From the NCBI RefSeq assembly GCF_000026545.1, contig NC_011601.1: a stretch of DNA of 64,000 bases, one strand, 5' to 3'. The position numbers were made by a program. The DNA is from Escherichia coli O127:H6 str. E2348/69. GTDB lineage: Bacteria; Pseudomonadota; Gammaproteobacteria; Enterobacterales; Enterobacteriaceae. Of this stretch, positions 3,001 through 6,000 are shown one piece after another. How positions within the stretch are numbered: position 1 is the first letter of the stretch; each line of letters begins with the position of its first letter.

Positions 3001-6000
3001 TTGGTGTGCCCATCATGATACCAAATGCGTTTTTTTGTGGGTTATACCAGTCTATGACTTTTGCGACAGTGTCTTTATGACCCTGAATTGTCTTGTTTTT
3101 TAAATCAGTAAACTGATTACTTTGGATTCTTACAGCAACGAAATCCCGTTTTATATTGAAAATAGATAAAACTTTTTCTGTAATGTAGTTTTCTTTTATT
3201 AAATCTGCATTTCGATATGATAATAGTTTCGCTGGTGTGGGAGTGGTGGTTATTTTTCTGTTTAACAGTTTTCCTGTTTGCTCTGTTTTTATTAGAGAAT
3301 ATGATGTTTTTTCGTTGCGTAATATGTTACTAATTGATGATAAGCAGTTCTTTATGATTGGCATAATAAATTCCTTGTCTTCATATGGATGAACTTTTGA
3401 TAGGAAGTCTTATATTATATAAACTAATTGCTATCATTTTTGTAGTTAATTGTCTAGTAGAGTTGTCATTTTTTATGTTCTATTCTTATTGATTCTGTTT
3501 AGGCATAGCCATAATGCATGATGGTGTGGCGTGGCAAAGCAGAGATATACAAAGTCTGCCACATGTTTTTATGACAAAAAATTAGCGCAAGAAGACATAA
3601 AATCACCTTGCGCTAATGCTCTGTCTCAGGTCACTAATACTATCTAAGTAGTTGATTCATAGTTACTAGATATGTTGTGTTTTGTAGTATTATGCAGTCT
3701 ATTTTTTAGACTAAATATATTGTAACACATTGATATTAATGGTCTTTAGCGTTTCACGTTCAGCTTTTTTATACTAACTTGAGCGAAACGGGAAGGTAAA
3801 AAGACAAAAAGTTGTTTTTAATACCTTTAAGTGATACCAGATGGCATTGCGCCATCTGGCAGAGTGATTAACTAAATATCGCAGTAATCGAGGCACTCGC
3901 CAGAGAGTGAAAATGAACGTTAAACCCGACCATCGCGCCGCTGGCACCTTCATCGACATCAATACGTTCTACATCCAGCGCGTGAACGGTAAAAATGTAG
4001 CGATGGGTTTCGCCTTTCGGCGGCGCTGCGCCATCGTATCCGGTTTTACCAAAGTCGGTACGCGTCTGCAAAACGCCGTCTGGCATTGCTACCAGACCAG
4101 AGCCAAACCCTTGCGGTAATACGCGGGTATCAGCGGGTAAATTAACAACTACCCAGTGCCACCAGCCGGAGCCAGTTGGCGCATCCGGGTCGTAGCAGGT
4201 GACAACAAAACTTTTCGTTCCCACAGGAACATCATCCCACGCCAGATGCGGTGAAATATTATCGCCATCGTAACCCATGCCGTTAAAGACATGACGATGC
4301 GGCAGCTTATCGCCATCGCTCAGATCGTTACTGATGAGTTTCATTAGAATGCCTCCGGGAAACCTCGGCCTTCAGACCGGGGAGGAAAGGAGGCGGTTTT
4401 CCGACTAACTGTACTTTGCATAATCACATTTTCCTCTTTAGTATGTGAACACATGAAACGCGCATATAAATACCGGTTTTACCCGACAACTGAGCAGGCT
4501 GAGCTTTTAGCTCAGACGTTTGGCTGTGTGCGCTTCGTCTACAATTCCATCCTTCGTTGGCGTACCGATGCGTACTACGAGCGAAAAGAAAAGATCGGTT
4601 ATCTACAGGCCAACGCTCGCCTTACGGCGCTCAAAAAAGAGCCTGAATACATATGGCTGAATGATGTTTCCTGCGTTCCCCTCCAGCAGTCGTTGCGCCA
4701 CCAACAAGCCGCCTTTGCTAACTTCTTTGCCGGACGAGCTGCATATCCGGCTTTCAAAAGCAAACGGCACAAACAGGTGGCTGAGTTCACTGCCAGCGCG
4801 TTTAAACACCGTGACGGCGAGTTGTATATAGCAAAGAGCAAGTCGCCGCTGGATGTTCGCTGGAGTCGAGAATTACCATCTGCGCCGTCAACCGTTACCA
4901 TTTCCAGAGATAGCGCTGGCAGGTACTTTGTTTCCTGCCTGTGTGAGTTTGAACCTGTATCAATGCCTGTTACCGCTAAAACGGTCGGCATTGATGTGGG
5001 CTTAAAAGATTTATTCGTCACCGATACCGGATTCAAAACCGACAATCCCCGCCACACCGCTAAATATGCGAAGCGATTAACGCTGCTACAGCGACGTTTA
5101 AGCAGGAAGCAAAAAGGCTCAAGAAACCGTATTAAAGCCCGCTTAAAGGTCGCCCGACTCCACGCGAAAATCGCCGATTGCCGGATGGACAATCTGCACA
5201 AGTTGTCCCGCAAACTGATTAACGAAAACCAAGTTGTTTGCGTCGAATCCCTCAAGGTGAAAAACATGATCCGCAACCCGAAGCTGTCTAAAGCAATAGC
5301 TGACGCAGGCTGGAGCGAACTTGTTCGCCAGCTCCAGTACAAAGGCAAATGGGCCGGGCGGTCAGTGGTCGCCATTGACCAGTATTTACCGTCCTCAAAA
5401 TGCTGTAGTTGCTGCGGTTTCACCATGCAAAAAATGCCTCTTAATGTTCGTAAATGGCACTGCCCTGAATGCGGCGCAGACCATGATCGCGACATTAACG
5501 CGGCACGTAATATTAAAGCTGCCGGGCTGGCAGTGTTAGCCCACGGAGAGCCTGTAAACCCTGAATCGCAGCACGCGGCTTAGGTTCGGCTCGTTGAAGT
5601 GGGAATCCCCGTCATTCAGGGCGGGGAGCCGTCAAGAGCCCTCCTTTCTTGTTTGCAGAAAGTGTAGCCAGAAACCCTCACGCTGACTTCCCGTTATTGG
5701 CAAAAAAATGTTTCATCCTGCACCGCACGGTTAACCGCTGCGGTCAGACGCTGCAACTGTTGCGGGAGAATAATATAGGGCGGCATCAGGTAAATCAGTT
5801 TGCCAAAAGGCCGGATCCAGACACCCTGTTCGACAAAGAATTTTTGCAGCGCTGCCATATTCACCGGACGAGTGGTTTCGACCACGCCGATTGCCCCCAG
5901 TACGCGCACATCGGCAACCATTTCGGCGTCACAGGCGGGGGCAAGTTGCTCGCGTAGCTGCCCTTCAATAGCCGCCACCTGATGCTGCCAGTCGCCAGAT

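Follow-up and report, generated by a model that had tools for sequence, protein, structure and literature searches.

A predicted TnpB omega-RNA scaffold at the right end of an IS200/IS605-type element between ybhB and bioA of Escherichia coli E2348/69

The omega-RNA (or reRNA) of the ISDra2 TnpB of Deinococcus radiodurans, with which Karvelis 2021 is reportedly associated, is the nearest described counterpart of the RNA considered here, which is predicted at the right end of a tnpB element lying between ybhB and bioA in a 64,000-nucleotide (nt) stretch of Escherichia coli O127:H6 str. E2348/69 (contig NC_011601.1; the window in what follows). The ISDra2 omega-RNA solved by cryo-electron microscopy (Nakagawa et al., PMC10097598), numbered backwards from the right end of the element, has a stem 1, a pseudoknot between -105..-103 and -5..-3, a stem 2 and a stem 3a with 3' strands at -35..-32 and -48..-42, a flexible stem 3b, and a stem 4 with a UUUA loop at -20..-17. 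The sot RNAs of archaeal IS1341-type elements start inside the 3' end of tnpB and pass its stop codon, and the Rfam families sot0042 (RF02656) and HgcC (RF00062) were derived from archaeal tnpB 3' ends (PMC4615843). RAGATH-18 (RF03064) is the core of IS607 TnpB reRNAs and has been reported with IS607 TnpBs only, outside the open reading frame (ORF; PMC11061315). For the ISGst TnpB and IscB proteins of Geobacillus stearothermophilus, Meers et al. (bioRxiv 10.1101/2023.03.14.532601) described 'peel-and-paste / cut-and-copy' retention of the element.

In the window, a tnpB-only IS200/IS605-type element of 1,291 bp occupies positions 4345-5635, between the ybhB start codon and the ybhB ribosome-binding site. 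Its segment 5518-5635, read on the + strand, very probably encodes a TnpB omega-RNA scaffold homologous to that of ISDra2. The original prediction, made from this sequence alone, had placed a candidate scaffold at the tnpB 3' end and right end of the element, and its position, its covarying structure and its homology to the ISDra2 type all agree with that proposal. The predicted omega-RNA of the element is a previously unannotated instance of a well-characterised system. Of the scaffold block, 66 nt are the final part of tnpB and 52 nt the right end of the element; it spans the tnpB stop codon.

The structure was derived from an alignment (A1) of 26 non-identical scaffold regions equivalent to window positions 5486-5635. 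RNAalifold predicted 31 pairs in this alignment, 19 of them with compensatory changes. In a curated structure of 34 pairs, 92.2% of the alignment cells were paired, as against 39-47% when the partners were slid, and double changes were seen at 21 of the 34 pairs. The covariation score was 0.46, compared with 0.08-0.14 in controls, and was reached by none of 500 shuffles. Because G-U pairs are frequent, the structure is specific to the + strand, that is, to the sense strand of tnpB. The minimum free energy fold of 5518-5635 alone reproduces the comparative structure, but the support for it comes from comparison across copies and not from single-sequence folding. Stem 1 is paired in 98.7% of cells, with compensatory changes in 3 pairs; stems 2, 3a and 3b (5540-5603) covary in 14 of 17 pairs, and the internal loop bears an invariant GGAG...GAA. 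A pseudoknot joining the stem-1 loop to the GUC at -5..-3 is likely, with G5525-C5527 as the candidate 5' strand and G5631-C5633 as the 3' strand. The coordinates of the stems and of the other features are collected in Table 1.

Table 1. Coordinates of the element, its predicted RNA and the neighbouring genes in the window (right-end numbering takes position 5635 as -1)
Feature	Position	Strand	Description or basis
TAM (transposon-associated motif) TTCAT, host sequence immediately 5' of the left end	4340..4344	+	empty-site comparison, left-flank alignments
Left end with subterminal imperfect palindrome	4345..4452	+	insertion boundary, DNA fold, left-end alignment
tnpB	4453..5583	+	376 amino acids (aa); stop codon 5581-5583
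Stem 1, GCUGCC / GGCAGU	5518-5523 / 5529-5534	+	loop GGGCU, 5524-5528
Stem 2	5540-5544 / 5599-5603	+	3' strand at -37..-33
Stem 3a	5548-5552 / 5588-5592	+	3' strand at -48..-44
Stem 3b	5560-5563 / 5581-5584 and 5567-5569 / 5575-5577	+	holds the tnpB stop codon
Stem 4, UCCCCGUC / GGCGGGGA	5606-5613 / 5620-5627	+	loop AUUCAG with UUCA; the right-end subterminal hairpin
GTCAA, final bases of the element (transposon-encoded motif TCAA)	5631..5635	+	copy alignments and empty site
Predicted guide GAGCCCUCCUUUCUUG	5636..5651	+	host DNA, 16 nt; length taken from ISDra2
Host hairpin CTTTCT-TGTTTGC-AGAAAG	5644..5662		bioA-ybhB spacer, present in empty sites
ybhB	3868..4344	-	158 aa, intact; ORF list and RefSeq annotation of E2348/69
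bioA	5694..6983	-	context gene; stop codon 5694-5696; RefSeq annotation and sequence
bioB	from 7070	+	context gene beyond bioA

One further pairing proposed by RNAalifold, of GAC 5491-5493 with GUC 5631-5633, showed no double changes and was rejected; the GAC is invariant because GAC/GAT is the codon of the catalytic Asp (HDRD). In some copies from Endozoicomonas and Ferrimonas (L036 ~2162-2352, L033 ~2228-2415, L022 2234-2419), the scaffold is interrupted by about 14-48 nt of inserted sequence, placed in the linker between stems 1 and 2, in the GGAG loop or in stem 4, and all copies of the Endozoicomonas group have an extra hairpin of about 23 nt between stems 2 and 4.

When the stems are numbered from the right end, their positions agree with those of the ISDra2 omega-RNA within one or two nucleotides. 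The authentic ISDra2 locus was absent from the plasmid collection, and relatives with TnpB 80-82% identical were used in its place; to verify the numbering, an ISDra2-like locus from Deinococcus was used that runs collinear with the coordinates as published (CUCA/UGAG, AGGCUGU/ACGGUCU, GGAAU and GUUCAA). A covariance model, R1, built from alignment A1 matched three such Deinococcus loci with E values of 2.8e-9 to 2.2e-8 in a 110-kb search, and of 2e-10 to 1.5e-9 when these loci were searched alone. All of these are full-model matches that run up to the right end ...GUUCAA and retain stems 2, 3a and 4. Against the same model the window scaffold scores 167.9 bits with no broken pairs. Comparison with known scaffolds, the check suggested in the original prediction, thus came out in its favour both in the R1 matches and in the co-location of the stems with those of ISDra2.

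The two systems share several features. In both, the RNA is drawn from the tnpB 3' end together with the right end; the element ends in (G)TCAA here and in GTTCAA in the ISDra2-like loci; the 3' strands of stems 2 and 3a, as well as stem 4, lie equally far from the end; and the stem-4 loop is UUCA here and of the UUUA type in ISDra2. A pentaloop GGNNU, with a G that here would pair to C(-3), is found as GGGCU here and as GGAAU (-106..-102) in the ISDra2 type, and in topology the stem-1 loop corresponds to the pseudoknot partner of ISDra2. There are also distinct differences. The TAM is TTGAT in ISDra2 but TTCAT here, and tnpA is absent from the present element. Stem 1 has a 19-nt loop in ISDra2 and a 5-nt loop here, stem 3b is longer here, and position -5 is U (partner A) in ISDra2 but G (partner C) here, so that this candidate pseudoknot pair changes from U:A to G:C between the families. 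The tnpB stop codon lies about 7 nt before the right end in the ISDra2-like loci and 52 nt before it here, and the ISDra2 TnpB has 408 aa as against 376.

The protein itself is, as judged from its sequence, a bona fide TnpB, an RNA-guided endonuclease of the IS200/IS605 type. It scores 400 bits against the NCBIfam model IS200_TnpB and 369.5 bits against guided_TnpB, whereas its score against IS607_TnpB (169.8 bits) is below the cut-off of 350. The match to ISDra2 TnpB (8EXA, 8H1J) is full length, at 255 bits, and the catalytic residues are the same: the RuvC triad of D (GIDVG), E (CVESLK) and D (HDRD) is kept in alignment with the ISDra2 residues, as are the CxxC...CxxC cysteines of the zinc finger. 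Since the catalytic D-E-D triad is present, a nuclease-dead regulator of the TldR type was ruled out.

The ends of the element were located by comparison with unoccupied sites. The tnpB segment is carried at the same ybhB-bioA site by 341 of 5,426 complete E. coli genomes, including E2348/69, LF82 and 'FDA strain Seattle 1946'; in nearly all the remaining genomes both flanks match and the 1,291 bp between them are absent, and empty sites were seen in most of 5,419 E. coli genomes. Over 3860-5900 the window is 100% identical to E2348/69. The empty allele of one such strain (L001) reads ...GAGTTTCAT|GAGCCCTCCTTTCTTGTTTGCAGAAAG... at the insertion point, and its alignment to the window places the insertion at exactly 4345-5635 with no target duplication. 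The element starts with TAGAATGCCTCC and ends with GGGGAGCCGTCAA. Similarity ends right after GTCAA in independent copies carried by plasmids of Serratia, Klebsiella, Salmonella and E. coli, and 40 loci of other species (63-99% aa identity) likewise diverge immediately past this sequence. At the left end, the ybhB ATG, which reads CAT on the + strand (4342-4344; RefSeq annotation), directly abuts the element. The TAM core TCAT is common to 15 independent insertions, as seen in left-flank alignments, and the left flanks of relatives end in TCAT, TTAT or TTAC. The TAM that the original prediction expected to find adjacent to the left end is therefore TTCAT, and the empty site consists of this TAM followed by the guide match (TTCAT|GAGCCCTCCTTTCTTG).

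DNA folding of the left end gives palindrome arms of GCCTCC (4351-4356) and GGAGGC (4389-4394) with an inner stem of 4363-4368 and 4377-4382; the left and right subterminal hairpins are alike (...TTCAG..CGGGGAG). As is characteristic of IS200/IS605 elements, terminal inverted repeats and a target duplication are absent and hairpins are present at both ends. The TAM TTCAT, the terminal TCAA and the two hairpins identify the element as a tnpB-only (IS1341-like) member of IS200/IS605. Stem 4 probably also serves as a single-stranded DNA hairpin bound by TnpA. The ORF list shows no tnpA within 4345-5635, a result that does not extend to a TnpA acting in trans, for which no search was made. The stretch of the element ahead of tnpB is only 108 nt long, both here and in about 30 relatives.

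These boundaries alter part of what was first proposed. The structured region had been drawn as the tnpB 3' end plus some 110 bp after it, with a CCCCG/CGGGG hairpin nested in GGCT/AGCC and a second hairpin, CTTTCT/AGAAAG; an element boundary well inside 5583-5690 had been named beforehand as evidence against the idea. The boundary does fall in this interval, at 5635. It leaves 52 bp (5584-5635) to the element and 58 bp (5636-5693) to the host, the latter unchanged in empty sites. Both hairpins exist at about the expected coordinates, but only CCCCG/CGGGG lies inside the element; CTTTCT/AGAAAG is removed by the boundary and is thus host sequence, not scaffold. CCCCG (5607-5611) and CGGGG (5622-5626) extend to the 8-bp stem 4; about 40 diverged copies have kept this stem, and four of its eight pairs show compensatory changes. 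The outer GGCT/AGCC nesting had to be abandoned: 62% of its cells were paired, the same as in shuffled or slid controls, and there was no covariation. GGCTC (5588-5592) pairs instead with GAGCC (5548-5552), with covariation, as stem 3a.

With the right boundary at 5635, the guide would be the host sequence from 5636 to about 5651, its presumed length of 16 nt following that in ISDra2 (PMC10097598). The original prediction had the guide read from the 3' end of bioA and antisense to that gene. The predicted guide falls instead in the bioA-ybhB spacer, of which 5636-5693 (58 nt) lies to the right of the element, and its end is 43 nt short of the bioA stop codon; it is on the opposite strand to any bioA-ybhB read-through transcript, but it is not antisense to the bioA coding sequence. 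The guide is antisense to the Shine-Dalgarno region of ybhB, which reads AGGAGGGCUC on the - strand and, where the allele is empty, AGGAGGGCUC|AUG. Within the window, only one other site matches the guide with 3 mismatches, which is within chance expectation. Where the element is present, GTCAA and not TTCAT stands before the guide match, and cleavage of the element's own flank is therefore not expected.

By analogy with the described systems, transcription of tnpB would read through the right end into host DNA, and the RNA would fold into stems 1-4, probably with the pseudoknot between the stem-1 loop and the GUC at -5..-3. TnpB would bind the folded RNA, the following ~16 nt would act as the guide after whatever processing the RNA undergoes, and the complex would recognise TTCAT plus the guide match, which is the uninterrupted ybhB-bioA junction as present in an empty allele or after excision. 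If this empty junction were cleaved, recombination with an occupied copy would help to retain the element, as in the model of Meers et al. The ISGst elements resemble the present one in having the TAM at the left end, a guide from the right-end flank and many tnpA-less copies, and the TAMs TTTAT and TTCAT occur there too (10.1101/2023.03.14.532601). They differ in host and sequences, and here there is one copy per genome. Literature searches for TnpB with ybhB, or for a TnpB insertion in E2348, found nothing relevant.

Several observations weigh against assigning 5518-5635 to a working omega-RNA. Single-sequence folds gave z-scores of only -1.5 to -1.7, modestly beyond chance. The pseudoknot pairs are compatible in 96% of cells, but one is a wobble, three sequences are mismatched, and no double changes occur. 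Part of the R1 score against the Deinococcus loci comes from a conserved coding stretch (model positions 1-32), and the right-end hairpin taken alone would also be explained by TnpA binding to single-stranded DNA. No Rfam family matched at its gathering score. Finally, the element is single-copy, at one identical site in all 341 carriers, with all copies at least 99% identical; together with the lack of tnpA, this makes its current mobility doubtful. The element may be immobile in E. coli, in which case a retention function would perhaps have no opportunity to act.

The sub-threshold Rfam matches deserve description. The best was RAGATH-18, at 5540-5605, with 29.0 bits (E = 0.0056; gathering score 44.9). 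A larger and more strictly filtered search with this model (E<=5) gave no match in 16 relatives, and an ISDra2-like locus searched alone gave none either. Membership was rejected on these grounds and the match is kept as a resemblance: the whole model is matched, from an outer stem through an internal loop GGAG...UGAA to an inner stem, but RAGATH-18 is IS607-associated and lies outside the ORF, whereas here the ends are of the IS200/IS605 type and part of the RNA lies within the ORF. For sot0042 and HgcC, the window and some relatives (three for sot0042, five for HgcC) gave weak matches that are correct in place and strand. At 11.8-23.5 bits they are far under the gathering scores of 88 and 50, and membership in these families was also rejected. 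These RNAs share with the present one the overlap with the tnpB 3' end and a terminal hairpin with a UUCA loop; the families differ in being archaeal. The matches are recurrent and correctly placed, and they argue weakly for the omega-RNA.

Of the alternatives, the one that survives best is that the element is an immobile relic, in which the scaffold sequence is still recognisable but the system is inactive, with no TnpA and no empty target in the cell. This is a possibility to be taken seriously, if a less probable one. The absence of tnpA and the single, nearly invariant copy described above are what such a relic would show, and many truncated copies and end fragments are present on plasmids. 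However, the ORF is intact with its catalytic residues and the scaffold has kept all its pairs. Moreover, a nuclease with its guide could cut incoming or sister DNA bearing an empty site without any TnpA.

It is distinctly unlikely that read-through of tnpB and the omega-RNA region serves, independently of TnpB, as a cis-antisense RNA against the bioA 3' end or a bioA-ybhB transcript. tnpB and bioA are convergent, with stop codons 110 nt apart, the terminator scan found no + strand terminator in 5583-5800, and one archaeal tnpB 3'-end RNA was reported as anticorrelated with a convergent gene (PMC4615843). This arrangement is, however, the by-product of one insertion, and relatives of the element adjoin unrelated genes.

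We consider it very improbable that all the features act at the DNA level only, the right-end hairpin being a TnpA site and the upstream stems the result of coding constraint, with no functional RNA. IS200/IS605 ends do require subterminal hairpins, those of the left and right ends are similar here, and stem 1 and the 5' part of stem 2 lie within the ORF. Nevertheless, compensatory double changes are seen at 14 of the 23 pairs of stems 1, 2, 3a and 3b, although these stems are not known to take part in transposition. The C-terminal residues encoded there are poorly conserved and the position of the stop varies (matches end at residues 365-376), and the stems fall where the ISDra2 RNA has the stems that are bound by protein. 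These points favour an omega-RNA scaffold over DNA-level features.

Lastly, that the AGAAAG hairpin is the bioA intrinsic terminator, an alternative raised in the original prediction, is scarcely credible: the hairpin does lie 31 nt downstream of the bioA stop codon on the - strand, but its 6-bp stem (CTTTCT 5644-5649, AGAAAG 5657-5662) is A/T-rich with two of six pairs G-C, is weak (-5.5 kcal/mol on the - strand and -3.5 kcal/mol as RNA on the + strand) and lacks a U-tract. No T-run follows it on either strand, the terminator scan reports no terminator there, and the fold of the 58-nt spacer is no more stable than those of its shuffles (z = +0.34 and +0.04). Where the site is empty, the hairpin adjoins the Shine-Dalgarno sequence, 9 nt upstream of the ybhB start codon, which suggests that bioA and ybhB are co-transcribed. 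From the scan and the fold energies, a terminator function was rejected for either of the two hairpins on either strand.

The present analysis provides a precise annotation of the ends, TAM, predicted scaffold and predicted guide of a native E. coli TnpB system found in the 341 carrier genomes. Its architecture is that expected for an IS200/IS605 TnpB, with no new mechanism.

Partial copies of the element were also found among the plasmid matches (H74-H99 and H30/H70). Many Salmonella and Klebsiella plasmids carry its 3' half alone (query 583-1291). In other plasmids, genes whose annotation reads 'helix-turn-helix domain-containing protein' contain a 71-nt piece that equals window 5550-5620 at 94% identity, and further plasmid matches are to a 61-nt left-end fragment, 90% identical. 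In the Klebsiella plasmid pOXA1_020030 (L009, 995-1793), an IS200/IS605 tnpA is followed by a truncated copy of the family that has lost most of tnpB but still has the whole scaffold region (full-model match at 119.7 bits). The scaffold model matches L009 a second time, more weakly (52.9 bits), on the opposite strand, at the 3' end of a different tnpB.

Ahead of tnpB, at window 4413-4455 on the + strand, TTGCAT is separated by 17 nt from TAGTAT, which is located 8 nt before the tnpB ATG. No Shine-Dalgarno sequence is visible in the window before this ATG, and a TAnnAT-GTGA/AAG block ahead of tnpB is kept in relatives. The sequence suggests that the tnpB mRNA is leaderless or nearly so.

The position of the insertion relative to ybhB is also of interest, as the element is inserted exactly between the ybhB Shine-Dalgarno sequence and the ybhB ATG. 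Fifteen independent insertions have a TCAT TAM, and in 13 of them this CAT is, on the opposite strand, the start codon of an ORF of 150 to >330 aa (window 4340-4356, L003, L004, L012, L013, L015, L020, L021, L023, L037, L038, L045 and L046). Annotated genes are present at three of these: ybhB in the window, traX in L004 and a phage head-processing gene in L003. By a uniform criterion 12 of the 15 occupied sites qualified, whereas of the other TCAT sites in the same neighbourhoods 12 of 190 did so (binomial P about 1.5e-12). The complement of the TCAT TAM is ATGA. When the empty sites were reconstructed, nine of the 13 had no alternative in-frame start upstream, and several showed a canonical Shine-Dalgarno sequence inside the would-be guide. 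Insertion at such a site separates the gene from its own Shine-Dalgarno sequence, and the predicted guide of the omega-RNA is the antisense of the latter. Survivorship of non-disruptive insertions may explain part of the enrichment at start codons. A literature search for a start-codon preference found nothing relevant.

On the - strand, the left end of the element supplies GGAGGCAUUCUA|AUG to ybhB (DNA GGAGGCATTCTA|ATG). In the enterobacterial copies (window 4345-4356, L003, L004, L013, L037, L038 and L046), the left-end palindrome arm places GGAGG 7-8 nt before the host ATG, the distance being 7 nt for ybhB in the window; this GGAGG is a possible replacement ribosome-binding site. Copies from Zobellella and Pseudomonas have left ends without GGAGG. 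A sigma-70-like sequence pointing toward ybhB is found at window 4449-4420 on the - strand (TTCACA, 18 nt, GATTAT, with TG). It is the only one in 4300-5800, and the count is no higher than in shuffles. On the bioA strand, a terminator-like score was given to window 5533-5519 (- strand), where CTTTAATATT follows the antisense of stem 1, with a count not above that in shuffles; bioA read-through might stop at this site, about 160 nt past the stop codon, and ybhB would then be uncoupled from bioA.

A more speculative proposal, which we regard as unlikely, is that the branch with TCAT TAMs is specialised for host start codons, the left end of the enterobacterial copies supplying GGAGG and perhaps an outward promoter and the guides of the branch being directed against Shine-Dalgarno or 5'-untranslated sequences. 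If site choice and an expression cassette were at work and not survivorship, the element would rewire ybhB, uncoupling it from bioA, and the nuclease would police the un-rewired allele. A TAM could then couple a transposon to translation starts, with the insertion replacing host expression signals.

Adjacent to the element, window 3760-3785 holds CAGCTTTTTTATACTAACTTGAGCG, which we take to contain the phage lambda att core. To the left of this sequence is the type III effector gene espJ (2711-3364), where the empty-site strain has ybhC beside ybhB. This arrangement suggests that a lambdoid prophage is integrated at attB just beside the element.

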